Notes: generated by a model from the sequence alone, not told the origin. 64,000 nt of DNA from Abditibacteriota bacterium (GCA_017445025.1 JAFSVJ010000090.1:156-64155), one strand, 5' to 3'; shown: positions 7,103 to 63,300, counted from the stretch's first letter. Translations and numbers: made by a program.

Positions 7103-7115
7103 TGAATAATTTCCC

Positions 7116-7530
7116 AAATCACAAATCACAAAATTGTGGTGCTACGCACCACTTATGTTAGTGGGCTCTAAATTTTAAGGCTGGCTATGGTTGATTGACT
7201 TCACCCTCTTTCTCATCCCAAAAAGTGTCGTAAACTCCACTTTTAGGGAACCCTGAGAATTGAACTGAAATTTGCACACAGTTGCAAATTTCCTTTCAAG
7301 GACCCACTCCCAAAAAATCAAAGATTTTTCGGGAACCCTTGGGTCACCCACCCGCCCGGGTTGTATTTTTGATTTGCATGGGACTGCAAATCAAAAAGAG
7401 AGGATTAGCACATACTCAAACTTTTCAGATTCGCAATTTTCCTTTCAAGGACCCATTCGAGCCATAAATTGTGTATTAATTTTGTAATTTGGAAGAGTAG
7501 CCCTTAACTTTAAGGTTGGAGGGTGAATTT
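7116..7530. repeat. Composite mosaic hairpin-repeat cluster in the atpH-atpA spacer
   Basis: It begins AAATCACAAATCACAAA followed by the hairpin GTGGTGC-tac-GCACCAC. The next ~50 nt are nearly identical to 22232..22280. The interior holds reverse-oriented relatives of the 54855..55066 / 62909..63220 unit (GAAATTTGCAcacagTTGCAAATTTCCTTTCAAGGA, CTTCACCCTC). Confidence 0.8.
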
Positions 7531-10072: not shown

Positions 10073-12059
<1,987 letters not shown>

Positions 12060-14605: not shown

Positions 14606-14986
14606 TATGATAAAACATTAAAAATAGATGATAGATTAAGGTTAAAAGGTGGCGGTCATGGACAAGCTAATTTAGATTTGTTAGATAAATATCATATAAA
14701 ATATGAAATTAATGATCCACAATATTCGAATGGTGTTAGAGTAGGTAATATTCCAAATCATAAAATAAAAACCAAACAATTCGGAAAGAATCAAGTATGG
14801 TTTCCTGAAAAGTGGACAGATAATGACATTAGGCGAGCGGAAGAACATGTTATAAGACTTAAAAATAACATAAGATCCCATGCTAATCCACAATTTGCCT
14901 GGTATAATAGAGTTAAAGTAGGAATTTTTACCTGTCAAGAAAGAGTAATAAGTATATTTCCTGATAAATATCAAAAGGAGAAGTAG
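14591..14986 (+). pseudogene. Orphan EndoU-like RNase toxin C-terminal module with no N-terminal delivery domain and no canonical start before the first catalytic His
   Basis: The frame is open from 14591 (..LKGGGHGQANLDLLDKYHIKYEI..NGVRVGNIPNHKIKTK..QVWFPEKWTDNDIRRAEEHV..VKVGIF..ISIFPD). The only in-frame start is the TTG at 14678, downstream of GGGH. The pattern matches my recollection of the bacterial EndoU/LXG-toxin CT family. Confidence 0.45.
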
Positions 14987-14989
14987 ATA

Positions 14990-15574
14990 ATGAAAATAAA
15001 TTGTGATGATGGTTTCAATCCCGAATGGGTTGAAGGAGCAGAACTTGATGGAAATCATCAAATACCTAAAATTATCAAACCGGATTTTTTTCAAATTCCT
15101 ATTGATGTTTTACCTTTTTCAAAAAGACATCAAACGAAAGATTATTCAGAATTTATTATTTTTTATGAAAATGACGATAAATTTGGAGCATTTGTAAAAA
15201 ATCCTGAAAAATTTTATGATGAATTAAAGCAATTTCCTGGAATAATAGGTCCGGATGTTTCTGTTTATGTTGATTCTCCTCTTATAGTTCAAATGGCAAA
15301 TGTTTACAGAAACAGAGCTTTATGTTATAAACTTCAAAAAGATGATTTTTATGTATTACCGAATGTTCATTGGGGTGACTGGAGAAGTTATCAAAAAAAC
15401 CTATTTAATGAACAATTTGCTTTCTTGGGCTTACCAAAAAATAATATTGTTTCGGTTGGAACTTATGGACAAATTAGAGGGAAAGATAATTTTAATCGTT
15501 TTGCGGAAGGTTTTGACGCTATGGTTGAAGAATTAGAACCGGAAATAGTTTTGGTTTATGGGTCTATGCCGTAA
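14990..15574 (+). CDS. DUF4417-like protein
   Basis: 194 aa. The motif string FYENDDKF..PE.., IGPDVSVYVDSP, ANVYRNRALCY, VLPNVHWGD and EIVLVYG resembles DUF4417 (PF14386) as recalled. It starts 4 nt after the toxin fragment. Confidence 0.55.
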   Translation: MKINCDDGFNPEWVEGAELDGNHQIPKIIKPDFFQIPIDVLPFSKRHQTKDYSEFIIFYENDDKFGAFVKNPEKFYDELKQFPGIIGPDVSVYVDSPLIVQMANVYRNRALCYKLQKDDFYVLPNVHWGDWRSYQKNLFNEQFAFLGLPKNNIVSVGTYGQIRGKDNFNRFAEGFDAMVEELEPEIVLVYGSMP

Positions 15575-15833: not shown

Positions 15834-15897
15834 TCCATCCCCCCCGTCTTGCCTTACGGCAATCCACCCCCCAAACCTTTGGTTTAGGGGGACAGAA
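15834..15897 (+). repeat. Hairpin-repeat module pair in the secA leader
   Basis: The sequence is CCATCCCCCCCGTC-TTGCCttacGGCAA-TCCACCCCCC-AAACCtttGGTTT-AGGGGGACAGA. The same module order is found at 48075..48192 (+) and 22279..22345 (rc). Confidence 0.75.
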
Positions 15898-15935
15898 CTT
15901 TATTTCTATAATTTATATATAAAGAGGATTTTAAA

Positions 15936-22131: not shown

Positions 22132-22138
22132 AGTTAAA

Positions 22139-22166
22139 GCCACCCTTTCGGGTGGCCTTTTATTTT
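22139..22166 (+). terminator. Rho-independent terminator
   Basis: GCCACCC-tttc-GGGTGGC followed by a T-rich tract. Confidence 0.75.
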
Positions 22167-22173
22167 GTGAATT

Positions 22174-22368
22174 CAAATCACAAAATTAAAATTAATAATC
22201 AAAAATCAAAATTGTGGAGCTATAGCTCCACTTATGTTAGCGAGCTCTAAATTTTAAGGTGGGCTATGGTTAACATTTTGTCCCCCTAACCGTAAGGTTG
22301 GGGGGTGGCAGTCCGTAAGGACTGACGGGGGGATGGAATTTTTGATTTTCTATTTTTGATTATTGATT
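22174..22368. repeat. Compact ~195-bp mosaic repeat element with inverted heptad-array termini
   Basis: The left end is AAATCACAAAATTAAAATTAATAATCAAAAATCAAAATT followed by the hairpin GTGGAGC-tata-GCTCCAC. The core has CCCCCTAACCgtaaGGTTGGGGGG and GGCAGTCCgtaaGGACTGAC. The right end TTTTTGATTTTCTATTTTTGATTATTGATTTT is the inverse of the left array. Confidence 0.8.
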
Positions 22369-23211
22369 TTAAAATACGCTTTCCGCTTTGTATACTTTAT
22401 AATATTCCTTTAGCTTTTCAAAAGCTTTATCTCTTTCACTTTCATCAAAAAATACCCCGAATACACAGGAACCGCTACCGCATAACAAGGCACCTTTTGC
22501 TCCTGCATTAATAAGTGCCATTTTTAAGTCAAAAATATCAAGCTTGTTTAAAATTTCAAAATCATTGGTCATATATGCACAGAGGAGTTCTTTTGTGAGC
22601 TCATTCTTTTCTTGAAGAGATACAATTTTATTGGTGAACCCTTTTGAAACAATGTTTTCTCGCTTGTCCAATTCACTGTAAGCTTCTTTTGTGGAAACAG
22701 TAGAGTCCGGTTTTATTATAATAAAATAGAGTTTAGGCAAACACTGTAATGGTTTTACAATTTCTCCTCTTCCTGTCATAAGGGTTGAGCCACCATATAT
22801 AAATAAGGGGCAGTCGGAGCCTATGGCGGCGGACATTTGGGCAAGGGCTTCTTTTGACAGGTTGGTTTCAAAGATTTCATTTAAAGCAACCAAAACCCCG
22901 GAAGCGTTTCCGCTCCCCCCTCCCAGTCCCGCTTGGGTGGGAATGTTTTTTTCTATATGAATGTTTATGCCTTTGTCAATTTGAAATGTTGACAGGAACA
23001 ATTCACATGCTTTATATACAGTATTTCTCTTGTCTGTGGGGACAGATGGATCTGAACAAGATATATTTATTCTTTCTTTTGTTTCCTCAATATCTATATA
23101 ATCACAGAGAGATAGGGTTTGAACCACACTTTCAAGATTGTGATAACCGTCCTCTCGCTTTACACCAACTTCAAGGGTATAATTAACTTTTGAAAAGGTT
23201 TGGATTCTCAT
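22369..23211 (-). CDS. ispE: 4-diphosphocytidyl-2-C-methyl-D-erythritol kinase
   Basis: 280 aa with the GHMP kinase motif GLGGGSGNASG and N-terminus KVNYTLEV...DGYH. Confidence 0.9.
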   Translation of the reverse strand: MRIQTFSKVNYTLEVGVKREDGYHNLESVVQTLSLCDYIDIEETKERINISCSDPSVPTDKRNTVYKACELFLSTFQIDKGINIHIEKNIPTQAGLGGGSGNASGVLVALNEIFETNLSKEALAQMSAAIGSDCPLFIYGGSTLMTGRGEIVKPLQCLPKLYFIIIKPDSTVSTKEAYSELDKRENIVSKGFTNKIVSLQEKNELTKELLCAYMTNDFEILNKLDIFDLKMALINAGAKGALLCGSGSCVFGVFFDESERDKAFEKLKEYYKVYKAESVF

Positions 23212-24303: not shown

Positions 24304-26064
24304 ATGAAGAAACTTTTTATGCTCATGGTAGCTGTAATCCTTATGGCTGCCCCTGCATTCTCACAGAATGCATTTTCAGACGTTCCTCGTGACCACTGGG
24401 CATACGGTGCTGTCAGTCAATTGGCTGCTGCCGGTATCCTTGAAGGTTATCCCGACGGAACTTTCCAAGGTAAGAGAACCCTTACCAGATACGAATATGC
24501 TATGATTATAGCAAGACTTCTTCCTTTCTTAAGCGACGAAGACATTAATGTTTCCGCTTTTGCCACAAAGAAAGACTTAGACGGCTATGCAAAACTTAGC
24601 GACATCAAAGGTGCTGATTTATCAGGTGTAGCATCAAAGGCTGATCTTGACGCTATTGCAAAACTCGCCAACGAATTCAAAGCAGAACTTGCTGCATTAG
24701 GTGTAGACGTTAACGCTCTTAACGCTGACCTCGCCGCTTTAAGAAGCAGAGTTTCTGCTCTTGAAGACGAGCAAGCAAGAGTTAAGATTACAGGAGAATT
24801 AACTCTCGCAGGTATGTATACCACTACCAAAGACGGTGACTATTTATTGGATTATGACAGAGCGGCGGAAAGAGAAGGATCCCAAGGAACACAATTTATG
24901 AAGGATTTCCAAATCAACGTTAAAGGTAGAGTTAACAGCAATATTAACGCTTACTTAACCCTTGTTGCCGGAGACTACATGAGAAAAAAACAGGAAGGTT
25001 TTGGGGCATGGAAAACCGATGTAAGTCAGTCTGTAGATTCCACTGTTCTCCCTTACTACATGTATGCAACTGTTGACGCAGGAAAGTATGGGGATTTCAA
25101 AATAGGTAGAATGCCTATGCAAATAAATAAATATATCTATTTGAGAGCTGATGCAGATTCCTACATAGATATTGAAAGAACCGATAATGGTGACTACCAA
25201 TTTGGTGGAGTAGATTATAACAAATCTTTCGGTGCTTTTGACATTCGTGCTTGGTTTGGTCAACCTACTCACTCACTGTTTTATGATACCAATATGGAAT
25301 CTGCTTATAATCTTCAAACTCCCATTAAGGATATGGCAGGTATTCAATTGGGCTTTAACATTTCCGAAGCAAGAATCGAAGCTTTGATAAACTACAACGA
25401 AGCTTTTAATGATTTTGAAGGTTGTATTCCTTCTTATGTGACAGGTCTTTCTAAATCTGTTGTATATGGTGGAACTGTAGCAATTCCTTTCGGAAGCTTT
25501 GCTCTTGATGGCGGATACTTTGTTCAAAAGACAAAGAATTTGGACACTGTTTACGGTTACGGTAAGGACAATCCTCATATTGCCGATGCCAATATTTCAT
25601 TTGAAAGCAATGGTTTAACCCTTGGTGTGGGATACTTGGACGTAGAAGCCGGATATAATGCACCCGGTGACTACGAAGGAATGGCTTATGTGGGCAACCC
25701 GGATAATATTAAAGGTTTCAAAGCCAACGCCGCTTACGATTTTGGCAACTTCAATATCTTCGGTGAATACAAACAATACAAAACCAAAGATGACAAATAT
25801 GTTAGCAAATATGAATATGATCTAACCAATGATAAAATAAAGTTTTTATGTGCCGGTATTAATTATAACGCCGGAAATATAGGTGAATTCGGCGCAAAGT
25901 ATGAATCTCTTGACAACCACGGAGATAAATCAAATTATATTACAGTCTCTTGGCTTAAGAATATAGGTAATGCCAATTTCAAAATCGCTTATCAAAATAT
26001 TAATAATAAAGAACTTGAAAACAAGGGTAGCATTATCTACGGTCAAGCAGGATATACATTTTAA
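24304..26064 (+). CDS. Outer-membrane porin with an N-terminal SLH domain, a coiled-coil linker and a C-terminal beta-barrel (OmpM/Som-like)
   Basis: It has a signal peptide, the SLH motif FSDVPRDHWAYGAVSQLAAAGILEGYPDGTFQG and a heptad-rich linker. An alternating-hydrophobic C-terminal region ends ...GQAGYTF. Confidence 0.85.
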   Translation: MKKLFMLMVAVILMAAPAFSQNAFSDVPRDHWAYGAVSQLAAAGILEGYPDGTFQGKRTLTRYEYAMIIARLLPFLSDEDINVSAFATKKDLDGYAKLSDIKGADLSGVASKADLDAIAKLANEFKAELAALGVDVNALNADLAALRSRVSALEDEQARVKITGELTLAGMYTTTKDGDYLLDYDRAAEREGSQGTQFMKDFQINVKGRVNSNINAYLTLVAGDYMRKKQEGFGAWKTDVSQSVDSTVLPYYMYATVDAGKYGDFKIGRMPMQINKYIYLRADADSYIDIERTDNGDYQFGGVDYNKSFGAFDIRAWFGQPTHSLFYDTNMESAYNLQTPIKDMAGIQLGFNISEARIEALINYNEAFNDFEGCIPSYVTGLSKSVVYGGTVAIPFGSFALDGGYFVQKTKNLDTVYGYGKDNPHIADANISFESNGLTLGVGYLDVEAGYNAPGDYEGMAYVGNPDNIKGFKANAAYDFGNFNIFGEYKQYKTKDDKYVSKYEYDLTNDKIKFLCAGINYNAGNIGEFGAKYESLDNHGDKSNYITVSWLKNIGNANFKIAYQNINNKELENKGSIIYGQAGYTF

Positions 26065-26346: not shown

Positions 26347-28107
26347 ATGAAGAAAATTCTTATGCTCATGGTAGCCGTAATCGTTATGGCTGCTCCTGCA
26401 TTCTCACAGAATGCATTTTCCGACGTTCCTCGTGACCACTGGGCATACGGTGCTGTTAGCCAATTAGCTGCTGCCGGTATTCTCGAAGGTTATCCCGACG
26501 GAACATTCCAAGGTAAGAGAACTCTTACCAGATACGAATATGCTATGATCATAGCAAGACTTCTTCCTTTCTTAAGCGACGAAGACATTAATGTTTCCGC
26601 TTTCGCTACAAAGAAAGACTTAGACGGCTATGCAAAACTTAGCGACATCAAAGGTGGCGACTTATCAGGTGTAGCATCAAAGGCTGATCTTGACGCTATT
26701 GCAAAACTCGCCAACGAATTCAAAGCAGAACTTGCTGCATTAGGTGTAGACGTTAACGCTCTTAACGCTGACGTAAACGCTTTAAGAAGCAGAGTTGCCG
26801 CTCTTGAAGACGAGCAAGCAAGAGTTAAGATTACCGGTGAATTAACTGTTGCCGGTAAATACACCATGTCAAAACATGATGACTACTTAGTAGACATTGA
26901 TGACAATCCTTTCAACAGAGACGGTTCTCAAGGAACTGAACTTATTAAGGATTTCCAAATCAACGTTAAGGGTAGAGTTAACAACAATATTAACGCTTAC
27001 TTAACATTGGTTGCCGGTGACTACATGAGAAAGAACATCAGTCCTAAAGAACCAGTTTGGAAAACTGATGTAAGTGAATCTGTAGACTCTACAGTTCTTC
27101 CTTACTACATGTATGCAACAGTTGATTGTGGTAAATACGGTGACTTCACAATTGGTAGACTTCCAATGCAAATCAACAAGTATGTCTACAAGAAATATGA
27201 TGTAGATTCATATGTTGACATAGCAAGAATGGACAATGGTGACTACCAATTCGGTGGTATTGACTACAACAAGAGCTTTGGTGCTGTTGATGTAAGAGCT
27301 TGGTTTGGTCAACCAACCCACAGCGAATACTTTGACATTACTGATTACCAAGCTTACGGTTTAATGACTCCTGTAAAGGACATGGCCGGTTTACAATTAG
27401 GTTTCAACATTGCCGGTGCAAGACTTGAAGCTTTAATGAACTACAACGAAGCTTTCAACGATTTTGAAGGTTGTATTCCTTCCTACGTAACAGGTCTTTC
27501 AAAGTCTGTTATCTATGGTGGAACTTTAGCTGTTCCTATGGGTAGTGTAGCATTAGATGCTGCTTACTTCCAACAAAAGACAAAGAACCTTGATTACTAC
27601 ATGTTCAACGAAAAGGACAAAGCTAACTTGTTAGACGCTAACTTAACATTTAACTGGAATGGTTTAACTGTTAAGGGTGGATACCTTGATGTTCAAGCCG
27701 GTTACGCAGCTCCTGCTGACTACGAACACATGGCTTACGTTCACAACCCTGACAACATCAAAGGTTTCAAAGCTTTCGCAGCTTACGACTTTGGTAACTT
27801 TGACCTCTTTGGAACATACAAGCAATACAAGCAAAAAGATGACAAGTTCTACAAGGGTGACTACGAATACAAAGACAAGATTAAATACTGGAATGCCGGT
27901 TTGAACTACAACTTCGGTAACTTCGGTAAAATCGGTGCAAAATACGAAGAGATTGACAACTACGGTGACAAGTCCAACTACATTACTGTTTCTTGGTTAA
28001 AGAACATTGGAAACGCAAACTTCAAACTTTCTTACCAAGCAATCAACAACAAGGGACTTGACAACAAGGGTAGCATCATCTACGGTCAAGCAGGTTACAC
28101 ATTCTAA
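26347..28107 (+). CDS. SLH-domain outer-membrane porin, tandem paralog
   Basis: Same length (586 aa) and architecture as 24304..26064. The N-terminal ~165 aa are almost identical. The barrel is diverged and rich in C-ending Asn/Tyr/Phe/Ile codons. Confidence 0.85.
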   Translation: MKKILMLMVAVIVMAAPAFSQNAFSDVPRDHWAYGAVSQLAAAGILEGYPDGTFQGKRTLTRYEYAMIIARLLPFLSDEDINVSAFATKKDLDGYAKLSDIKGGDLSGVASKADLDAIAKLANEFKAELAALGVDVNALNADVNALRSRVAALEDEQARVKITGELTVAGKYTMSKHDDYLVDIDDNPFNRDGSQGTELIKDFQINVKGRVNNNINAYLTLVAGDYMRKNISPKEPVWKTDVSESVDSTVLPYYMYATVDCGKYGDFTIGRLPMQINKYVYKKYDVDSYVDIARMDNGDYQFGGIDYNKSFGAVDVRAWFGQPTHSEYFDITDYQAYGLMTPVKDMAGLQLGFNIAGARLEALMNYNEAFNDFEGCIPSYVTGLSKSVIYGGTLAVPMGSVALDAAYFQQKTKNLDYYMFNEKDKANLLDANLTFNWNGLTVKGGYLDVQAGYAAPADYEHMAYVHNPDNIKGFKAFAAYDFGNFDLFGTYKQYKQKDDKFYKGDYEYKDKIKYWNAGLNYNFGNFGKIGAKYEEIDNYGDKSNYITVSWLKNIGNANFKLSYQAINNKGLDNKGSIIYGQAGYTF

Positions 28108-28142: not shown

Positions 28143-28170
28143 GGCCACTCGCAAGAGTGGTCTTTTTTTT
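28143..28170 (+). terminator. Rho-independent terminator
   Basis: GGCCACTC-gcaa-GAGTGGTC followed by T8. Confidence 0.85.
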
Positions 28171-28373
28171 ATCCCCTTTTTAATTCACTCGCATTGCGAG
28201 ATAAAGAGTTAAAACCTACAAGCTCCGTGTCTTGTAGGTCTTTAAGCAGGTGGAAGATATGACAAGGGTAATGCTTTATAGCAACTGATGGGGGCATTCA
28301 TTAAAGTTTGCTGGTAAATCCTAAGAAAAAAACAATGATTTTTCAAATAGATTTTTTAAGAATAGTTTAATAC

Positions 28374-28416: not shown

Positions 28417-28492
28417 GGGGATATAGCTCAGCTGGGAGAGCGCCACACTGGCAGTGTGGAAGTCAGGGGTTCGAGTCCCCTTATCTCCACCA
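28417..28492 (+). tRNA. tRNA-Ala (anticodon GGC), CCA encoded
   Basis: A 76-nt cloverleaf folded by hand. The acceptor stem is GGGGATA/TATCTCC with a G3:U70 pair. The D-loop is AGCTCAGCTGGGAGAGC, the anticodon loop is CT-GGC-AG, and the T-arm is GGGGTTCGAGTCCCC with a 3' ACCA. Confidence 0.93.
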
Positions 28493-28496
28493 CACA

Positions 28497-28519
28497 AACC
28501 GGTTTAAGCCGGTTTTTTT
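28497..28519 (+). terminator. Rho-independent terminator after tRNA-Ala
   Basis: AACCGG-tttaag-CCGGTT followed by a T-run. Confidence 0.65.
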
Positions 28520-28536
28520 ATTATATAGAGAATATT

Positions 28537-29490
28537 ATGAAAGAAGTATTAAAAAACAAATTAATCTATTTTATATTGGCAGCTTTTTTCTTGTGGTATG
28601 TATTCCCTTATATTCCTGTTGATAAGGCTATAAAAGCAATACCAAAGGATTTTGCCTGTCACAATCTTTCTGTCACTATTATTCTTATATCTTGTATTAT
28701 TGTTTCCACTGTCCTAAATATGTTTGTTCAATTTGGGTTGGTATATCAGCTGGCACGTCTGAAACTTAACTGGAAAAAGCTCCTCTTAGGTCTTTTTTTA
28801 TCCCTTGTTTGCCTGATTTTATGTATAGTTTGGATTGAGCATTATTTAATAATTCATAAACCTGAGATTTTTCCTCCCAATACTAATTACATTACTCACC
28901 TTTTGGCGATAGGTAAGAATATAGGTTCAAGAATGATTTCCGCCCTTCCTCAAAGGGGATTTATTAATTTCTTTATAATTCTCTTGTGTTTTAACTTTGG
29001 TTCACTCCTTTCTTATATAGTTAAGGAAAAGAATCTTCTTGTGCCTGTAATGTTGTGTTGTGCTTTTATAGATATATGGACCTGCACTGTGGGTTTTGTA
29101 AACAAAACTTTGGCAAAAGCCCCTGAGGTGGTAAGCGGTGTCAGCACAGGTGTCAGTATGATGGGTGGCTCTAAAATTATGGGAGCCAATATAGCCACCA
29201 TAGGACCCGGGGATTTTATTTTTGCTGCATTGGTTTTTGCTGTTGTTATGAGATTTAATATGGAAAAGGGTAGAACTTTTTGGGTTATGTTTGGGTTCCT
29301 CACTTTGGGAATGCTTCTTATTGTATTGGGAATATTGCCTTTCTTGCCCGCATTGGTTTGTGTGGCACTGGGAACACTTATTGCCAATTATAAAAAGTTT
29401 AATCTTTCCAAACAAGAAAAGATTAGTGTTCTGGTAGTATTTTTGGTGCTCTTGGGCTTACTCATTTTCTTTAAATTTTTTAAACAATGA
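28537..29490 (+). CDS. Polytopic membrane protein with presenilin/signal-peptide-peptidase-like (family A22, GxGD) motifs
   Basis: The ATG at 28537 avoids the tRNA overlap of the longer ORF. About 9-10 TM segments are present. AFIDIW (Asp codon 29071..29073), IGPGDFIF (29203..29214) and LPAL (29344..29355) occur in the YD / GxGD / PAL order and spacing. The stop overlaps the mrdA ATG (ATGA). Confidence 0.5.
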   Translation: MKEVLKNKLIYFILAAFFLWYVFPYIPVDKAIKAIPKDFACHNLSVTIILISCIIVSTVLNMFVQFGLVYQLARLKLNWKKLLLGLFLSLVCLILCIVWIEHYLIIHKPEIFPPNTNYITHLLAIGKNIGSRMISALPQRGFINFFIILLCFNFGSLLSYIVKEKNLLVPVMLCCAFIDIWTCTVGFVNKTLAKAPEVVSGVSTGVSMMGGSKIMGANIATIGPGDFIFAALVFAVVMRFNMEKGRTFWVMFGFLTLGMLLIVLGILPFLPALVCVALGTLIANYKKFNLSKQEKISVLVVFLVLLGLLIFFKFFKQ

Positions 29491-31247
29491 ATATAGAAAG
29501 AGTTCAGAAAAACAGAATAATTGCTTTTATGGTTATAGTCATAGTCTTGTTTTTGGCTTTGGCGGGAAGGCTTTATTATCTTCAAATAATCAAAGGAGCC
29601 GAATATAATCAAAAGGCAATTAATAACAGAATAAAGCTGGTGAAAACTCCCGCACCAAGGGGTCCCATTATTGACAGAAACGGTATTGCTTTGGCAGATA
29701 ATGTGAAAGCTTATGTGGTGGACGTGATTCCGGATGAAATGGAAAAGGAACCGGCGGCTCTGGAACTTTTGTGTGACATACTTAATATGAACGCAAAGGT
29801 TTATTATGATATAATTAAGGAAACCAAACCGCGTCCCGGCTATCCCGTGAGAATAGCTACAAATGTGACCTTAGACCAGATTATAAAAATAGGGGAAAAC
29901 AGGCATATTCTCAAAGGGGTTTCCGTAGATAACACTTATGTCAGGTCCTATCCTCTCAAAAATAAAGCATGCCATATTACAGGTTATACAAGAGAGATTT
30001 CCAAAGAAGCCCTTGAAGAAGCTCGTGAAAAGGGACTTAAATACAGACCCGGAGATAACATAGGTGTGGCAGGTCTTGAAAAGTATTACGAACAGGAACT
30101 GAGGGGGGTTGACGGTGGAAAAAGGCTTATGGTCAATGCTCAAGGTCAAGTTGTTAAAGTTTTGAAAGATATGCCTTCAGAGCAGGGAAAGACTTTAAAA
30201 TTATCCTTGGATACTAACTTGCAGTCCGTGGCAATGTCAGCTTTGAGCGGAAAGGTTGGAGCAACCGTCGCAATTGACCCAAATAACGGCGAAATTTTGG
30301 CAATGGTGTCCAATCCGACCTTTGACCCAAATATGTTCACGGAAGGGCTAAAAGCCTCAGATTGGCGAAAATTGAGCCAAAATCGGGGGCATCCTTTGCA
30401 GAACCGTTTCATAGGATCCTATTATCCTCCCGGCTCAGTTTTTAAACCTATAATTGGTATCAGTTGTTTGGAGAATGGGGTTTCTCAAACTTCCACTTAT
30501 GCCTATTGTCCCGGATATATTCGTTTGGGAGGATATAAGAAAGGGTGTTGGGCAGCCCATGGTGGAGTGGATTTTTACAGAGCTATTTCCATGAGTTGCG
30601 ATACATGGTTTTATAAACAGTCTATGAAATTGGGAATAGAAAGATTATATAAAACCGCCACAGAGTTTGGTTTAGGGCAACCTACGGGAATTGATTTACC
30701 GGAAGAAGTTATACGAAACGAAAAGGCCGGTAATTTCCCAAGTAAAGAGTGGCACAAAAAGGTTCATAAGAGAGAATGGGTTATCGGTGATACCTTGAAT
30801 GTGAGTATAGGTCAAGGTGATGTCCTTGTAAGCCCTCTTCAAATGGCTGTGGCAATAAGTGCTGTTGCCAATGGTGGGACAGTTTATAAACCTCATTTGC
30901 TTAAAGAGATTATAGACCCCAAAACAGGACAAGTGACCAAAAATGAAATAGTTGTAAACAGCAGAGTTGAAGCAAAGGATGAAAATTTTAAAATAATGCG
31001 AAGTGCTATGGAAGGTTGTGTCCGAGGGGGAACGGGACGGCCTTGTGCTATAAGCGGTGTGCGAGTGGGAGGAAAAACCGGGTCTGCGGAAGCAACCGGT
31101 GGTAAGGCTCACGGTTGGTTTGTGGCCTTTGCTCCTGTGGATAACCCCAAAATAGTGGTGGCAACCATAGTAGAACATGGTGGAAGCGGATCCGGAGCCG
31201 CAGCCCCTGTCTGCAGAGCTATGATAAAACAGTATTTGGGAAAGTAA
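29487..31247 (+). CDS. mrdA: Penicillin-binding protein 2 (elongasome transpeptidase)
   Basis: 586 aa with an N-terminal TM anchor, GRLYYLQI, SxxK (GSVFKP) and KTG (GGKTGSAE). Confidence 0.9.
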   Translation: MNIERVQKNRIIAFMVIVIVLFLALAGRLYYLQIIKGAEYNQKAINNRIKLVKTPAPRGPIIDRNGIALADNVKAYVVDVIPDEMEKEPAALELLCDILNMNAKVYYDIIKETKPRPGYPVRIATNVTLDQIIKIGENRHILKGVSVDNTYVRSYPLKNKACHITGYTREISKEALEEAREKGLKYRPGDNIGVAGLEKYYEQELRGVDGGKRLMVNAQGQVVKVLKDMPSEQGKTLKLSLDTNLQSVAMSALSGKVGATVAIDPNNGEILAMVSNPTFDPNMFTEGLKASDWRKLSQNRGHPLQNRFIGSYYPPGSVFKPIIGISCLENGVSQTSTYAYCPGYIRLGGYKKGCWAAHGGVDFYRAISMSCDTWFYKQSMKLGIERLYKTATEFGLGQPTGIDLPEEVIRNEKAGNFPSKEWHKKVHKREWVIGDTLNVSIGQGDVLVSPLQMAVAISAVANGGTVYKPHLLKEIIDPKTGQVTKNEIVVNSRVEAKDENFKIMRSAMEGCVRGGTGRPCAISGVRVGGKTGSAEATGGKAHGWFVAFAPVDNPKIVVATIVEHGGSGSGAAAPVCRAMIKQYLGK

Positions 31248-31248
31248 A

Positions 31249-31588
31249 GCACAATGCACAATGCAAAATGAAAAATGCAAAGTTAAATGCAGAATGCAAA
31301 ATAATTGTGGGGCTTCGCCCCATTTTGATTGGTGGATTCTAAACTTTGTAGTCGCCCTATGAAAATCGCACGCCACCTTTTCCCCATAAAATTCCGTGAA
31401 TTTTGGGGATATGTCAGGCGAAGCCTGACAGGGGGGCATCTCACTAATGCTCATTGTCGCTCTATACAATTAAGACGCCACCATTCCCCCCTTTTTAAGG
31501 GGGGACAAAGGGGGGTATATTATTCATTCTGCATTTTATTATGCATTTTGCATTTTGCATTTTTTATTTAAATTTGCAACGCAAATTT
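31249..31588. repeat. Mosaic hairpin-repeat element with AATGCAA-type heptad termini
   Basis: The left array is GCACAATGCACAATGCAAAATGAAAAATGCAAAG..GCAGAATGCAAAAT followed by the hairpin GTGGGGC-ttc-GCCCCA. The interior has TGTCAGGCgaaGCCTGACA and CCCCCCtttttaaGGGGGG. The right array CATTCTGCATTTTATTATGCATTTTGCATTTTGCAT is the inverse of the left. Confidence 0.75.
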
Positions 31589-33034: not shown

Positions 33035-34783
33035 ATGAAAAAATATATTTTAGTTATACTATTATTGAGTTTGAGTATTTTGGCTTTTGGCGAAAGTTTT
33101 CCGGGAGAAATTGTAAACGGGGAGTTGACTTCTTATAGTTTTAATTCTTCTAAGATAGATTTGTTTAAGATTGGCGTAGATATTATTTCTATAGGACCTA
33201 AGGCATTAAGTAATAAAAAGTGTAAAGAAATTTCGTTACCTTTTACTGCTGTTTATTTTAAAGAATATTGTTTAAGTGATTGTCCGAACTTAAAATATGT
33301 TTTTTTTCCCGCTTTAACACAATATATAGATGATACGGCTTTTTATAATAACAGATTAGAAAAATTTGGAATAATGAAAATGATTGCTTATAAGGATCCG
33401 GATTTAATTAGATTTGGATATTTTTATATAGGTTGGAAGTTAGGATTAATATCAGAACTTGAATTTAATAATGAAATGTTAAACCGAGATAATAATGATA
33501 GATTAAAAGAAGTTGGAATTACTCCTCTTGATACTAATTTAGGTAAATATAATCAATTGACCAATCAGATTTTGGTTAAATATACTGTTATTGATGATGT
33601 ATTATATACTGTTTTTGAAGACAAATTAGTTTGTTATCCTGCTTGTAAAAAAGATAATAAGTATGAAATATCAAAGAAAACAAAAGAATTGGGAAAAGTA
33701 GCTTTTGCAAATTGTCAATATTTAGAAGAGTTGATAATTCCAATAGGTGTGACCAAAATTTATGATACAACTTTTGAGGGATGTGAGAATGTGAAATTTA
33801 TCGTTGTTAAGAATTCAGTTGCACATAAATATTGCGAAAGTCACAATTTAAATTTTGAAACAATAGATGGTGGCTCTCAAGATTTAGATCAAAGTGACAA
33901 TGCAAAAGATGATGCTATAGATAATCAAGAGAAAAAAACAAATGATATTAATGAATTAAAAGATACCGAAAAAGAAACAACCGAAGAGCCGGTAAAAGAA
34001 GCTAAAACTATAAAAACTGAGAGTAAATCAAATAATACCTCCGGTCCTTCTTGTCCAGATAATCCTTTTTATGATAATCTTCATTCTTTTATAGATAAAG
34101 AAGGGAATGAAATATCAAAAGACAGGATACTCTTGGAAAATAATTTTATTGAAGATAGTGGTTGGCTGAAAGATTTAGATGAAGATAATGTTGATGAGAA
34201 TAATTATGATCGTATATATACAGTATTAAACTCATTGGTTCAAAAAAATGCAATAAAGAATAAGAAAATAACTGATCTATGGACCGGACCAAAATGTTCC
34301 TTTGATGCATTAAGTGTTGTGGGCAACAAAAATTTAAAATATATAAAAATTGATCCGAATGTTGAAGATATTGATGAAGATGCTTTTCAAGACAATCCAA
34401 ATATAGAACTGTTTCATGTTTGTGTTGTAATGAATAAGGTTAATACAAAAAACAAAAATGTTCTTACAAAAAAATATATTGATATTGATGGTGTTTTATT
34501 TAAGAAAGATGAAAGTAAAATTCAAAAGAGTGGTCAATATCTCTTATTTTACCCGGTTGCAAAAAAAGATGAGTCTTATGTTGTTCCGGATAATACTGAA
34601 AGAATTTGTAATTCCGCCTTTAGAGATGCGAAAAATCTAAAAACTGTTACAATACCAAAATCTGTGACAGAAATAGGAAATAATGCTTTTCACGGAACAA
34701 AAATAACTTTAATTGTGACTAAAAACTCTTATGGAGAAAAATTTGCTAAAAGCAAAAAAATGAAATTTGAATATGCAAAATAA
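33035..34783 (+). CDS. Secreted BspA-type leucine-rich-repeat (LRR_5) protein
   Basis: It has a signal peptide, repeats of the type IP.gVt.I...aF..C.nL..v, and a central acidic/Lys-rich linker. Confidence 0.8.
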   Translation: MKKYILVILLLSLSILAFGESFPGEIVNGELTSYSFNSSKIDLFKIGVDIISIGPKALSNKKCKEISLPFTAVYFKEYCLSDCPNLKYVFFPALTQYIDDTAFYNNRLEKFGIMKMIAYKDPDLIRFGYFYIGWKLGLISELEFNNEMLNRDNNDRLKEVGITPLDTNLGKYNQLTNQILVKYTVIDDVLYTVFEDKLVCYPACKKDNKYEISKKTKELGKVAFANCQYLEELIIPIGVTKIYDTTFEGCENVKFIVVKNSVAHKYCESHNLNFETIDGGSQDLDQSDNAKDDAIDNQEKKTNDINELKDTEKETTEEPVKEAKTIKTESKSNNTSGPSCPDNPFYDNLHSFIDKEGNEISKDRILLENNFIEDSGWLKDLDEDNVDENNYDRIYTVLNSLVQKNAIKNKKITDLWTGPKCSFDALSVVGNKNLKYIKIDPNVEDIDEDAFQDNPNIELFHVCVVMNKVNTKNKNVLTKKYIDIDGVLFKKDESKIQKSGQYLLFYPVAKKDESYVVPDNTERICNSAFRDAKNLKTVTIPKSVTEIGNNAFHGTKITLIVTKNSYGEKFAKSKKMKFEYAK

Positions 34784-34801
34784 AAAGGAAGGTGATTCTT
34801 C

Positions 34802-35965
34802 ATGTTTAAAAATATAGTTAAAATTAGTTTATTATTAATTGCTTTGTTATATAGTTCTGTTGTATTTTCTTATGACAGCGAAAACTTCTTTGTTGATATT
34901 ACGCCGAGGGATCTTATAGATTTTTGTTTGGACGGAAAAATAAATCCTGCAATTCTTGATGATTCTCAATTATTAACTATTATTTCTTATGATAGAAAAG
35001 CTTTTGCTCAAATGCTTATAAAGGATGCTTATAAAAATTATCCAAATAGGTATATAAATAAGTATGGAGCATTGGTAATGCAAATAGATGAACAAAATGC
35101 TAATGAAGAGGCACAATTACGTTATAATGCTTTGTATAATAAGACTTGTCTTGTTAATAATCTTTATCGAAAGATACATTTTTTAATTAATCACGACGAT
35201 AAAATCGTTCAAGATGATGAGGATACTATTTTTGCGGAATGGGAAGTCCTTGAAAATGGAATAATTATTGATTATAAGGAAGACCAAAAAACTTTGGGAT
35301 ATGGTTGGAAAAAAATATATGCGACCCTCAATAATCCTATAAAAGAAGGTGCAATAAAGAATACACATATTACACATTTATTAACAGAGGCTAATTGTGA
35401 ATTTGATACTGAAAGTGTTGTTAATAATAAAGATTTAAAATTTGTATTAATACAGAGTGAAATTACTAATATAGATGAAGATGCTTTTAGAGATAATCCT
35501 AATATTTTAGTGTATCATGTTTGTGGTGCTAAGTATTATAGTAATGTTCATAAATATGATTTAAACTATATAGAAGGAAGACAATTAAGTTGCGTTGATG
35601 ATACTGTATCTCCGGCTGGTATCTTGGTCAAAAGTGCAATGAGAAAAAGTTTGTTTTATTATTTAAAACCTTATGCTAAATATTATGATATTAACGGAGT
35701 TTTATTTACTAAAAACGGTTTACAATTATTATTTTATCCAATAGGGAAGAAAGATCAATCATATAAGGTTCCCGATGGTGTGACTAATATTGGTAATTCT
35801 GCTTTTAGAAGTGCCAAGAATTTAAAAACCGTCACTGTTCCGGCTTCCGTTAAAAGTATAGGTGACGAAGCCTTTTTTGGAACAAATTTAACTTTATTTG
35901 TTAAAAAAGGTTCTTATGCAGAAACCTTTGCTAAAGAACATAAAATAAAAATTAAAAACTATTAA
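34802..35965 (+). CDS. Secreted BspA-type LRR protein, tandem paralog
   Basis: The C-terminal ~200 aa are collinear with the upstream gene (..NIDEDAFRDNPNI..LLFYPIGKKDQSYKVPDGVTNIGNSAFRSAKNLKTVTVP..). Confidence 0.75.
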   Translation: MFKNIVKISLLLIALLYSSVVFSYDSENFFVDITPRDLIDFCLDGKINPAILDDSQLLTIISYDRKAFAQMLIKDAYKNYPNRYINKYGALVMQIDEQNANEEAQLRYNALYNKTCLVNNLYRKIHFLINHDDKIVQDDEDTIFAEWEVLENGIIIDYKEDQKTLGYGWKKIYATLNNPIKEGAIKNTHITHLLTEANCEFDTESVVNNKDLKFVLIQSEITNIDEDAFRDNPNILVYHVCGAKYYSNVHKYDLNYIEGRQLSCVDDTVSPAGILVKSAMRKSLFYYLKPYAKYYDINGVLFTKNGLQLLFYPIGKKDQSYKVPDGVTNIGNSAFRSAKNLKTVTVPASVKSIGDEAFFGTNLTLFVKKGSYAETFAKEHKIKIKNY

Positions 35966-40840: not shown

Positions 40841-40867
40841 AAAAAGCCTCCCAATGAGAGGCTTTTT
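40841..40867. terminator. Bidirectional terminator between convergent genes
   Basis: An A5 run, AGCCTC-7 nt loop-GAGGCT, then T5. Confidence 0.7.
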
Positions 40868-42511: not shown

Positions 42512-42537
42512 TAAAAAAAGTGGAGCCTTAGCTCCAC
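42512..42537 (-). terminator. Terminator after pta, built from a repeat-family hairpin
   Basis: On the minus strand: AAAATTGTGGAGC-taag-GCTCCAC followed by T7. The hairpin matches the module at 22214..22231. Confidence 0.7.
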
Positions 42538-42555
42538 AATTTTGTATTTTATAAA

Positions 42556-47735: not shown

Positions 47736-49096
47736 CGGTTTCTTTTTATACCTTAGGTTGTAAAGTTAATCAATACGAAACGGAAAAAATTAGAGCTCTC
47801 TTTGAACAAGAGGGCTTTATTACTGTGCCGTTTTCTGAAGGTGCGGATATTTGTGTCATTAACACTTGCACTGTCACTGGAGTGGCTGACGGTAAGAGCA
47901 GAGCTGTTATCAGAAAAGCAAAACATATTAATCCGGAGACTTTTGTGGTGGTGACAGGTTGTTATTCCCAAACACACAAAGAAGAAGTTGAGGCTTTAGA
48001 AGAATGTGACCTTGTGGTGGATATTAAAGATAAACTTAAAATACTTTATTATATCAAATCACAAATCACAAATTCCATCCCCCCGTCAGTTTCTAACGAA
48101 ACTGCCACCCGGGTGGGTGGGAGCCCTCAAGGCTCCGAAAAGTCAATAGACTTTTTGGAGAATGGGCAAGCCTATCGGCTTAGGGGGACAGAGGATTCTC
48201 ATGAAACAGAAGGACAAGCTCAAAAAATCACTCTTAGGCAGAGAACTCGGGCGGTTTTGAAAGTTCAAGACGGATGCCACCAATTTTGTTCTTATTGTTT
48301 GATACCTTTTGCAAGAAAAGAGCTTTACAGTGAACCCATAGAAAATGTTATAGAAGAAGTTCAAAACCTTTGTGATAACAATTATAAAGAGATTATTTTG
48401 ACGGGTATTAGACTGGGCTCCTATAATTATGAAGGAAATGACCTTTCCGCTCTCATTAAAATTATTTTAGAAAAAACCTCCATTGAGAAAATCAGGCTCT
48501 CTTCCATAGAAATGTGGGAGATAGATGACAAGCTTTTGGAGTTAATGAGTGACAGAAGGCTCTGTAATCACCTTCACATTCCTTTGCAACAGGGCACAGA
48601 CCAAATACTCAAGCTTATGAACAGACCCTATACTTCAGGGGATTATTTTTCTCTTATTGAAAAAATAAGAAATAAAATTCCCGATATAGGCATAACTACG
48701 GATGTTATTGCCGGGTTCCCTCAGGAAACGGATGAACTCTTTGAACAAAGTTGTGATTTTATCACAAAAGTCGGTTTCTCTCGTTTACATGTCTTTAAGT
48801 ATTCTCGTCGTCCGGGAACCGGTGCGGATAAAATGGAAGGTCAAATTGAGCCCGGGTTAAAAAAAGACAGAGTGAATACTTTGACGGAAATAGGAGAGAA
48901 ATTATCATACTCCTTTGGAAAAAAGCACATAAACAAAGATTGTGAAATGATTTTTGTTCAAAAGAAGAAAGATGGTTTTCTTTATGGCTATACAGATAAT
49001 TATATGGAAGTTATGACAGATAAGCCTTATTCTAAGAATGTTTATATGAAATTGAAACCTAAATCCTTGTCTCAAAAAGGAGTTTTGATTTTATAA
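47732..49096 (+). CDS. mtaB: MiaB-like tRNA methylthiotransferase (MtaB type) carrying an in-frame repeat insertion
   Basis: The N-terminal MTTase domain has VSFYTLGCKVNQYE, VINTCTVT and VVTGCY. The radical-SAM motif is GCHQFCSYC. The start overlaps the pfkA stop (ATGA). Confidence 0.85.
   Translation: MTVSFYTLGCKVNQYETEKIRALFEQEGFITVPFSEGADICVINTCTVTGVADGKSRAVIRKAKHINPETFVVVTGCYSQTHKEEVEALEECDLVVDIKDKLKILYYIKSQITNSIPPSVSNETATRVGGSPQGSEKSIDFLENGQAYRLRGTEDSHETEGQAQKITLRQRTRAVLKVQDGCHQFCSYCLIPFARKELYSEPIENVIEEVQNLCDNNYKEIILTGIRLGSYNYEGNDLSALIKIILEKTSIEKIRLSSIEMWEIDDKLLELMSDRRLCNHLHIPLQQGTDQILKLMNRPYTSGDYFSLIEKIRNKIPDIGITTDVIAGFPQETDELFEQSCDFITKVGFSRLHVFKYSRRPGTGADKMEGQIEPGLKKDRVNTLTEIGEKLSYSFGKKHINKDCEMIFVQKKKDGFLYGYTDNYMEVMTDKPYSKNVYMKLKPKSLSQKGVLIL
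48054..48195 (+). repeat. Mosaic hairpin repeat embedded in-frame in mtaB
   Basis: The sequence is AAATCACAAATCACAAA + CCATCCCCCCGTCAGTttctaacgaaACTGCCACCCGGGTGG + GGAGCCctcaaGGCTCC + AAAAGTCaataGACTTTTTGG + AAGCCtatcGGCTT + AGGGGGACAGAGG. The modules are shared with 15834..15897, 22279..22345 (rc) and 54983..55010. Confidence 0.8.
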
Positions 49097-49260
49097 AGCA
49101 ATAGGCTTATGGTTTATTTTGCATTCTTCATTTTGCATGGTCCCTTTTATCTCGCAAGTGAGGGAATGCAAAAGGGAGAATAGGCTTTTTGCAGTAATGG
49201 AGCCTTTATTATTAGCGGAGAAAGGTGCCCCCTTGTGGGGGCATTTTGTTATTATGTTGA
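49097..49260. repeat. Hairpin-repeat modules downstream of mtaB
   Basis: TTTTGCATTCTTCATTTTGCAT is the inverse of the AATGCAA heptads at 31249. CCCTTTTATCTCGCAAGTGAGGGAATGCAAAAGGGAG is nearly the same as 63243..63277. GGTGCCCCCttgtGGGGGCAT is also present. Confidence 0.65.
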
Positions 49261-49333: not shown

Positions 49334-49396
49334 TTTCAAATCACAAAATCGTGACGCTATGCACCATTAAAATTGGTGGGGATTGTGATTTGTTGT
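49334..49396. repeat. Miniature, degenerate repeat copy in the ATPase leader
   Basis: CAAATCACAAAATCGTGACGCtatGCACCAT...GGGGATTGTGATTTG. The ends are inverted (CAAATCACAA / TTGTGATTTG) and the hairpin carries two mismatches. Confidence 0.55.
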
Positions 49397-49419
49397 GTCT
49401 ACAAAATATAGGATTATAT

Positions 49420-54782: not shown

Positions 54783-55075
54783 AGATTTTAAAATCACAAA
54801 AACCCATCTCAAAAAAGTTTCGTTACGCAAGAGCTTTTTAGGGTGAGTCTGACAACTTAGGTGTTGGCTTAAATTATTAGGCTTCTATCGTAAAATTTGC
54901 AGTTTTGCAAATTTTACTCCTGACCACCCACCACAATGGCTAACGCCTTGTGGTCCCCCCTCCTTCCAAATCCCTAAAAGTTTCGCTATTCGCTCAACTT
55001 TTTGGAAACCCTTGGATGAAAGGAATTTGCGGTTGCAAATTCAGTTCAAAGAGGGTGAAGTAGGTTTGCTAATAA
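54783..55075 (+). repeat. Mosaic repeat cluster containing one full copy (with a nested insertion) of the ~155-bp structured unit
   Basis: 54855..55066 reads TTAGGTGTTGGCTTAAATTATTAGGCTTCTATCGTAAAATTTGCAgtttTGCAAATTTTACTCCTGACCACCCACC...GGTCCCCCCTCCTT..[AAAAGT hairpin insert]..GAATTTGCggtTGCAAATTCAGTTCAAAGAGGGTGAAG. It is in the same orientation as 62909..63220. Confidence 0.8.
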
Positions 55076-55094
55076 TAGGAAATGTTATAACGAT

Positions 55095-62823: not shown

Positions 62824-63300
62824 GATCAAAAATGGAAAATCAAAAATCAAAAGAGAAAAATAAACGATAAGCTTTAGGCTTGTCATATCTATATCCCTCC
62901 GTTGCCCCCGGGTTGTTAGTTTAGGTTATTAGGCTTCTATCATAAATTTGCAATTCTATGCAAATTTATTCCTGACCACCCCCGGCTTCGCCGGTCCCCC
63001 CTCCTTGAAAGGAAAATTGCGGATGCAATTTTCAGTTCAAAGAGGATGAATCTATTAACTTGGGTTGTTGGCTTAAATTGTTAGGCTTCTATCGTAAATT
63101 TGCAATTCTATGCAAATTTACTCCTGACCACCCACCATTCGCTTTGCGAATGGTCCCCCCTCCTTGAACGAAAAATTGCGGATGCAATTTTTACTTCAAG
63201 GAGGGTGAATCTATCAACTTAGGCTTTTTGCCGCAACAGAGCCTTTACCTCGCAAAGCGAGGGAATGCAAAAGGGGAGATAAACGATAAGTGTAATTATG
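62824..63300 (+). repeat. Mosaic repeat cluster with two tandem copies of the ~155-bp structured unit
   Basis: Heptads (AAAATCAAAAATCAAAA) come first, then unit A 62909..63061 and unit B 63062..63220, which are collinear and highly similar by eye. These are followed by the CCTCGCAAAGCGAGGGAATGCAAAAGGGGAG module. ATAAACGATAAG occurs at both 62860..62871 and 63279..63290. Confidence 0.85.

Follow-up and report, generated by a model that had tools for sequence, protein, structure and literature searches.

A mobile family of heptad-armed hairpin elements in an Armatimonadota genome and its likeness to rRNA intervening sequences

In the 64,000-nt stretch of DNA analyzed here (the window), a compact element on the + strand (22172..22372) raises the question of what kind of sequence keeps its hairpin stems paired while the sequences of those stems differ from copy to copy. 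A first-pass annotation had described a dispersed mosaic repeat family with covarying stems, had read this as selection on structure rather than sequence, and had proposed a structured-RNA or DNA-hairpin mobile family of the REP/MITE/RPE type. Based on a comparison of AtpD sequences, which falls within the Armatimonadota/Abditibacteriota, the host is an uncultured, AT-rich Armatimonadota bacterium.

Architecture of the element and its copies in the window

The focal element is preceded by an intrinsic terminator (22136-22163) of the upstream + strand gene and adjoins the stop codon of a − strand ispE-like gene. It consists of a left heptad arm (22172-22211), the H1 hairpin (22214-22231), the H2 module (22232-22271), a P hairpin with the sequence GTCCCCCTAACC-GTAA-GGTTGGGGGG (22279-22305), a Q hairpin with the sequence GGCAGTCC-GTAA-GGACTGACGGGGGG (22306-22334), and a right heptad arm (22338-22372). 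Between the left arm and H1 lies AAAATTGT, and H1 itself is a perfect 18-nt palindrome, GTGGAGCTATAGCTCCAC. The two arms are inverted relative to one another (26 nt at 88%), with pairing possible in several registers. The architecture originally described, with inverted AAATCA(A/C) heptads at both ends, a 5′ hairpin, and GC-rich inner hairpins, is thus present. The predicted fold is one closed multi-hairpin structure, with an RNA folding energy of −84.3 kcal/mol (z = −8.45 relative to shuffles) and a DNA fold z of −8.3.

An all-against-all comparison of intergenic spacers located at least 10 related elements in the window. Together, these occupy ~4% of its length (~2.7 kb) and account for over a third of the DNA that is non-coding. 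The element in the atpH|atpA spacer (7113..7492, + strand) begins with AAATCAC heptads (7116-7129), followed by H1, an H2 that extends to 7192, ~270 nt of hairpin modules, and degenerate inverted heptads (7466-7492). The atpG|atpD spacer holds a cargo-carrying element of 576 nt (10073..10648, + strand), in which heptads (10074-10101) and H1 lie to the left of a four-helix-bundle open reading frame (ORF; 10179-10535), and an inverted H1 and inverted heptads (10617-10644) lie to its right. A third element (31248..31586, + strand, fold z of −8.3) has arms in which AATGCA(A/C) heptads take the place of AAATCA (31250-31304 and 31518-31580), a variant H1, GC-rich inner hairpins, and an AATTTGC hairpin (31571-31587). 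The methylthiotransferase gene at 47732-49096 contains an in-frame copy (48056..48197, + strand) and is followed past its stop codon by a module cluster (49097..49240, + strand) with inverted ATGCA-type heptads, a CTCGC hairpin module, and others. Close by, in a 5′ leader, is a miniature copy (49337..49400, + strand) composed of CAAATCACAAAATC, a decayed H1, a second hairpin, and GATTGTGATTTG; its fold is not significant (z of −1.5). Two further + strand clusters were found. The cluster at 54783..55094 lacks H1 and contains a variable hairpin framed by GACCACCC and TCCCCCCTCC, two AATTTGC hairpins, and repeat family D6. The cluster at 62824..63300 starts with AAATCAA heptads and includes a tandem duplication (62910-63061 and 63062-63220, 84% identical), the two frame hairpins of which differ. 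The 5′ leader of secA carries a solo 66-nt double-hairpin module (P + Q; 15834..15899, − strand) that is inverted relative to 22279-22334 and has different stems.

Two loci are less clear. A weak or partial module cluster (28150..28300, + strand) contains a CTCGC-ATT-GCGAG module that is homologous to 63243-63277. At 42514..42545 on the − strand, a solo H1-like hairpin, GTGGAGC-TAAG-GCTCCAC, is followed by T7 (covariance model score of 34.6 bits, E = 0.0018). This hairpin is probably the intrinsic terminator of pta, and its family membership is uncertain. As a separate observation, several elements have a AAATTTGC-loop-GCAAATTT hairpin immediately beyond their heptad arms, both in the window (31571-31587) and at the left ends of metagenome contigs L049 and L050, as if it were an outer boundary mark or a preferred target.

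The elements had also been called far more GC-rich than their surroundings. This description applies to the inner hairpins and to the comparison with other intergenic spacers (13-26% GC) but not to whole elements, which have 37-43% GC relative to a window mean of ~35%. The C6/G6 runs noted at the outset are ~15-fold enriched in the intergenic DNA of the window. Likewise, the placement of elements directly after the stop codons of at least seven genes is borne out by a count of eight genes for which family sequence begins 0-11 nt past the stop codon. Three additional hairpin patterns that had been listed as behaving like H1 all exceed their chance counts in the window: AATTTGC-n-GCAAATT (6 observed, 0.02 expected), CTCGC-n-GCGAG (2 observed, 0.01 expected), and AAAAGT-n-ACTTTT (4 observed, 0.81 expected).

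Covariation of stems and matching of arms

Copies beyond the window were sought using an H1 pattern in which the variable stem positions were left free. With one genome per GTDB species, this pattern gave 30 matches, all of which are chance occurrences in the coding DNA of unrelated taxa, and the lineage is therefore not among the GTDB representatives. JGI metagenome contigs contain 13 true family members, in each of which H1 lies between the same heptads and H2. A covariance model of the heptads, H1, and H2 confirmed these metagenome copies and found no further ones, and a pattern scan of viral contigs returned one unrelated terminator-like hairpin. The same elements recur in independent assemblies from several samples. 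Assemblies of the Armatimonadota host break at the repeats, which thus fragment metagenome assemblies of this lineage; look-ups of further strains using the ATP synthase c subunit and ispE gave only short contigs or the same strain. In one contig (L051, 330-870), there is an abrupt switch from a family element to GC-rich DNA with a short ribbon-helix-helix/mobilisation-like ORF, which points to a chimera in the assembly or to foreign DNA inserted beside the element.

Within the window, the H1 stem is GTGGTGC/GCACCAC at 7136-7152, GTAGTGC/GCACTAC at 10107-10123, GTGGAGC/GCTCCAC at 10594-10611, 22214-22231, and 42520-42537, and GTGGGGC/GCCCCAT at 31307-31323. Mismatches are seen in the miniature copy (49351-49367). 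All of these coordinates and sequences, including those of the mismatched copy, had been listed correctly. In a set of 21 copies (7 from the window and 14 from metagenome contigs), 97.1% of the H1 cells are in standard pairs, and in three of the seven pairs both sides have changed. At pair 5, U:A occurs in 10 copies, A:U in 7, and G:C in 1; at pair 3, G:C occurs in 18, A:U in 1, and C:G in 1; and at pair 6, G:C occurs in 19 and A:U in 1. The resulting covariation score of 0.255 compares with 0.096 ± 0.016 in shuffles (0 of 500 as high) and with values of at most 0.077 in slid-partner controls. At the right end of contig L045, GTCGAAC/GTTCGAC replaces GTGGTGC/GCACCAC within homologous surrounding sequence. 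RNAalifold support for the H2 helix is weak and non-covarying.

The stems do covary as claimed, but selection on structure is not the sole reading of this result. A T:A pair at the center of H1 goes with a 3-nt loop and an A:T pair with a 4-nt loop. This pattern suggests two founder lineages rather than many events, and part of the covariation signal stems from these two types. In addition, some of the compensation may reflect mutation, with template switching correcting quasi-palindromes. Three further modules, with frames F1, P, and Q, likewise keep a constant frame around a self-complementary insert that differs between copies. One of them consists of GACCACCC-hairpin-TCCCCCCTCC and has five different hairpins; the other two are TCCCCCTA-hairpin-TGGGGGG and GG/GT-hairpin-GACGGGGGG. 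The arms follow a related rule. Across elements, the heptads are of the AAATCAA, AAATCAC, or AATGCA(A/C) type, the type matches within an element, and left arms pair best with right arms of their own heptad type. For the element at 31248, the cognate pairing is worth −41 kcal/mol, versus −20.7 kcal/mol or weaker for non-cognate arms. Structure rather than sequence seems to define the element.

Whether the hairpins act as RNA or DNA was left as an alternative in the original proposal. The non-standard H1 cells are split evenly between A.C and G.T, and on the sense strand G.T mismatches are no more frequent than A.C mismatches (4 versus 5). A comparison of whole-element folding energies on both strands gave no consistent winner, and only the P/Q module folds better on the G-rich strand, regardless of the direction of transcription. 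All five window elements with H1 at the left share the + orientation. Because the + strand is both the main coding strand and the leading strand by cumulative GC skew, this orientation cannot discriminate between RNA and DNA folding. A hairpin family is supported, with no sign that selection acts on the transcribed strand in particular.

Strain differences, cargo genes, and an in-frame copy

The mobility of the family is evident from related genomes. In two relatives with AtpD proteins that are 89% and 83% identical (L072 and L073), the atp spacers measure 21-81 nt, and no family copies were found in 21 kb of each. A contig from a very close strain (L074; 99% identical AtpD, 87-95% identical flanking DNA) departs from the window at precisely the positions of the elements. 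The atpG|atpD spacer of this strain is an empty 18 nt, in contrast to the 576-nt element of the window, the 66-nt module found at 15834-15899 has no counterpart at that position, and an extra element of ~450 nt is present where the window has none. The L074 element in the atpH|atpA spacer shares its left end and right flank with that of the window, with a wholly different interior, and the same allele is found in L037. The L074 copy of the focal element departs from the window at the first GC hairpin loop, after which other modules follow. Among all copies, there are at least six different continuations after the sequence ggctatggt at the end of H2. At the filled and empty sites at 15834 and 10073, no target-site duplication is readable, and the flanks are AT-rich and diverged. 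Presence or absence and rearrangement between close strains, along with absence from the relatives, bear out the proposal of a mobile family, which is young, lineage-specific, and still moving. A conserved host RNA is excluded by the absence of the family from two relatives and by its presence/absence differences in the strain with 99% identical AtpD.

Cargo genes, and the link that they provide to S23p-type intervening sequences (IVSs), had been missed in the first-pass annotation. Within the atpG|atpD element lies an intact ORF of 118 codons, which belongs to the 23S_rRNA_IVP/four-helix-bundle (S23p) family (PF05635, E = 4e-20; TIGR02436). Most family copies have no ORF, and within the window PF05635 occurs only in 10073-10648. 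A second cargo type is present in a metagenome copy (L048, 1241-1798), which contains a DUF559 ORF with a Vsr-like endonuclease fold. This ORF lies between inverted sets of the same GC-rich modules, and the hairpin of one module differs between the two arms.

The closest relatives of the four-helix-bundle cargo protein are ~50% identical and belong to other phyla. In five unrelated, GC-richer lineages, PF05635 genes that are 43-52% identical have housekeeping genes on either side (argB|argF, ETF beta|alpha, and others), and in all five the gene is bracketed by inverted repeats, which are mostly lineage-specific tandem arrays of short units. The repeats are built of AATTTTG units in L063 (1404-1438/1799-1869) and L075 (560-600/949-1004), of GAGGTAGGAGGTTT units in L064 (2868-3000/3361-3410), and of ATKCGGA units in L070 (425-456/850-918). 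The weakest case is L081 (570-600/958-1000), with a ATGTGCTAA unit. These arrangements suggest a general heptad-armed cassette, of which 23S rRNA IVSs would be one case.

The IVS of Coxiella burnetii contains an S23p ORF, has terminal inverted repeats that form a 28-bp stem, and carries, ahead of the start codon, tandem GACAGAT heptamers, of which there are two or three depending on the strain (PMC4990558). RNase III cleaves at the first repeat, and the authors regard the origin of the IVS as unclear (PMC4990558). In CPR bacteria, PF05635 ORFs are also found within rRNA insertions (PMC11270868), and convergent heptamer arrays were reported without explanation in Xanthomonas (PMC4692102). The present family resembles the S23p-type 23S rRNA IVSs of Coxiella, Leptospira, Salmonella, and other bacteria in its terminal inverted repeats, which form a long closing stem, in its optional S23p/four-helix-bundle ORF, and in the variable-number tandem heptamers in the stem next to that ORF (here, 10074-10101 and 10617-10644). 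Such IVSs are regarded as selfish, and their RNA is excised by RNase III (PMC4990558, PMC11270868). Unlike these IVSs, which occupy rRNA helix 25 or 45, the copies described here lie in spacers, 5′ leaders, and a coding sequence, and the window has no rRNA gene. They also differ in being multi-copy (at least 10 in 64 kb), in having the extra H1/H2 and GC-rich modules, and in having DUF559 as a second cargo and many ORF-less derivatives. The shared architecture and cargo hint at a link between the two and at the source of IVSs.

Besides heptads and an inverted Q module, the copy at 48056-48197 contains three further hairpins, and its fold is closed (z of −5.6). It lies within a MiaB/MtaB-like radical-SAM methylthiotransferase gene and is translated in frame as ~45 residues of the linker that joins the UPF0004 domain to the radical-SAM domain; relative to the nearest homologs, it adds ~41-48 residues. 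The nearest methylthiotransferase homologs align as two blocks that are offset by 40-46 residues, and in a multiple alignment all five homologs have a gap of 41-48 residues at the insert. Similarly, the linker is 47 residues long in MiaB from the PDB, versus 78 in the protein encoded in the window. This copy makes the earlier comparison to Rickettsia palindromic elements (RPEs) apt, and it indicates that such elements can lengthen proteins outside Rickettsia. RPEs are ~100-150 bp in length, are found in frame in housekeeping genes, and have no known transposase (PMC10969869). Like RPEs, the family comprises palindromic repeats that lie between genes and in frame within genes of an AT-rich, host-associated genome. 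It differs in its phylum, which is unrelated, presumably in its sequence, since homology to RPE-1 to RPE-10 is not expected across phyla, in the single in-frame copy seen, and in its modular mosaics with heptad arms.

Candidate explanations

The family cannot be assigned to any named one. In an Rfam search of the window, only a tRNA passed the gathering score, and at E ≤ 1 nothing matched the elements except a sub-threshold chance match to Phe_leader. A distant blastn search of phages and plasmids gave no match. No transposase, integrase, or HUH/Y1 enzyme was detected among the 30 window ORFs that were scanned, which encode only housekeeping, SLH/porin, LRR, EndoU, and DUF4417 proteins, and the ORF-bearing copies encode four-helix-bundle or DUF559 proteins and no known transposase. 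Terminal inverted repeats, as in classical MITEs, are present, and no parent insertion sequence with matching repeats was found in the window or the retrieved loci. Integron attC sites were rejected, as the copies are dispersed singly among housekeeping genes and there is no integrase among the scanned window ORFs.

Several known families share individual features. The Neisseria Correia elements (NEMIS) and the pneumococcal BOX, RUP, and SPRITE elements are likewise MITE-like and co-transcribed in operons, with BOX being modular, and elements nest in one another. RNase III cuts Correia elements at their terminal inverted repeats (PMC10969869). However, these elements have fixed terminal inverted repeats and target duplications (TA for Correia), whereas here the heptads are tandem and variable and no duplication is visible. 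The mobile GC clusters and double-hairpin elements of fungal mitochondria are also GC-rich modules in AT-rich spacers, are polymorphic between strains, and are sometimes found within genes; unlike the present family, they are organellar and lack heptad arms and cargo genes. Small palindromic non-autonomous repeats are thus a known kind. What is new is the family and its combination of features, namely IVS-type heptad arms, interchangeable modules with hypervariable stems, S23p/DUF559 cargo, and an in-frame copy. The original reading, in which the hairpins belong to an unnamed mobile family of the REP/MITE/RPE type, agrees with the covariation, the strain differences, the in-frame copy, and the lack of a known match.

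The explanation that we consider probable, although far from certain, is a fold-back mobile family of the IVS/MITE/REPIN/RPE kind that is non-autonomous and restricted to one lineage and that consists of IVS-like cassettes and ORF-less, MITE-like derivatives. Each element would form a closed stem in which matched heptad arms enclose H1, H2, variable GC-rich modules, and sometimes a cargo gene. Cassettes and derivatives would have spread into spacers, leaders, and a coding region, mobilised in trans by an enzyme from another locus. Since the stems and arms vary in sequence yet keep their pairing, this enzyme would probably recognize folded, single-stranded hairpin ends and not a fixed sequence, as proposed by analogy with REPIN/RAYT, IS200/IS605, or attC. 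In co-transcribed copies, RNase III probably cleaves the arm duplex, as it does in the IVS of Coxiella and the Correia elements of Neisseria, and a cut of this kind would allow 0.4-0.6-kb inserts to be tolerated inside the atp operon. The stems would stay paired because an unfolded copy would neither move nor be excised harmlessly. Some copies could not form the RNase III stem, since the second arm is degenerate (7113) or the right end is missing (48056, 54783, and L048).

The persistence of pairing has other possible origins. The covariation could be mutational, arising from correction of quasi-palindromes by intrastrand template switching or gene conversion, along with a few founder sub-families. 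This is a possible but not a likely account, and it is compatible with mobility. It fits the two founder lineages suggested by the H1 center and loop types, the many perfect stems, and the finding that A.C is as frequent as G.T in non-standard cells, as expected of a strand-symmetric DNA process. However, stems differ at three or more positions in identical frames (the right end of L045; F1; Q), and such whole-stem differences are not easily explained by single-site correction; uncorrected mismatches also persist in decayed copies (49351, L039, and the 3′ end of L043). An unlikely alternative is that H1 hairpins preceded by GT(G/A)G are mobilised as single-stranded DNA by a RAYT encoded elsewhere, as in REP/REPIN systems, and that the mosaics are BIME-like. 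C-G-closed triloops, such as GC-GAA-GC and GC-TTC-GC, are common in the family and are favorable DNA mini-hairpins. Like REPs, H1 has GTGG or GTAG at its start, the five H1-left elements share one orientation on the leading strand by GC skew, and inverted doublets occur in 10073-10648 (10107/10594) and at the ends of L045, with a single H1 in most copies. Short palindromes, mosaic clusters, and compensatory hairpin changes are further points of likeness, the last being documented for REPINs (PMC3116915). In contrast to REP stems, which are normally near-identical within a genome, the stems here are hypervariable within fixed frames, and neither a Y1 transposase nor a RAYT was found among the 30 scanned window ORFs. 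The heptad arms and cargo ORFs are likewise foreign to REPs, as is the in-frame copy at 48056-48197, given that REPs and REPINs are strictly extragenic.

Two remaining readings do not invoke a mobile element. The hairpins could be host-beneficial structured RNAs, such as mRNA stabilizers, terminators, processing sites, or small RNAs, held by selection on RNA structure and not selfish DNA. The very stable folds (z of about −8), the positions right after stop codons and inside operons, the terminator-like H1 hairpin with T7 at 42514-42545, and the GNRA-like loops (GTAA, GAAA, and GCAA) are consistent with such a role. It is nevertheless quite improbable, because the family is absent from relatives and is present, absent, or rearranged between strains with flanks that are 92-95% identical, because copies lie in both orientations relative to genes and one is inside a coding sequence, and because there is no sense-strand bias and no Rfam match at E ≤ 1. 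Chance similarity or an assembly artifact might be suspected from the low complexity of the heptad arms and from the possibility of metagenome chimeras, such as the abrupt switch to GC-rich DNA in L051. This reading is effectively refuted by the same elements in independent assemblies of several samples, by pattern counts far above those in shuffles, and by the heptads, H1, and H2 common to 13 metagenome contigs.

Returning to the favored fold-back mobile family, small palindromic repeats are common in bacteria, and the origin of IVSs has been a question since about 1990. Here, many copies with IVS anatomy lie outside of rRNA, and near-identical strains differ in whether a site is filled or empty, which makes the idea of IVSs as mobile elements directly testable. 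The main value of the family may lie in tying rRNA intervening sequences to a mobile, dispersed family, with both then open to study. A broader proposal, which we put forward at low confidence, is a pan-bacterial class of heptad-armed, fold-back mobile elements guided by structure, maybe via an Avd-like four-helix-bundle cargo. Under this proposal, rRNA IVSs would be a special case, and the present family would represent individually mobile 30-66-nt modules with stems that are freely replaced in fixed frames. If true, it would account for where IVSs come from, for the scattered multi-copy genes for "four helix bundle protein", and for the convergent heptamer arrays seen in Xanthomonas and in other bacteria.

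Several other features of the window were observed. Three paralogous genes for 586-residue SLH-domain/porin-like proteins are present (24304-26064, 26347-28107, and 29487-31247), the first two of which are a tandem duplication with 70-93% DNA identity (repeat families D1-D5 and D7). A tRNA gene (28417-28489, 67 bits), with weak family modules in the spacer upstream of it, overlaps a mechanically listed ORF (28456-29490), the start of which is probably wrong because of this overlap. Several BspA-type leucine-rich-repeat proteins (33035-35965 and 40866-42362) are encoded in very AT-rich DNA (26-29% GC), as is typical of host-associated bacteria, and this Armatimonadota bacterium is of a gut type. 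Finally, at 14678-15574, an EndoU-nuclease-like ORF (102 amino acids, only the C-terminal part of the domain) is followed by a DUF4417 gene. The two may represent a toxin fragment and an immunity-like partner, and at the site of this pair the L074 strain has a Peptidase_M78 gene.
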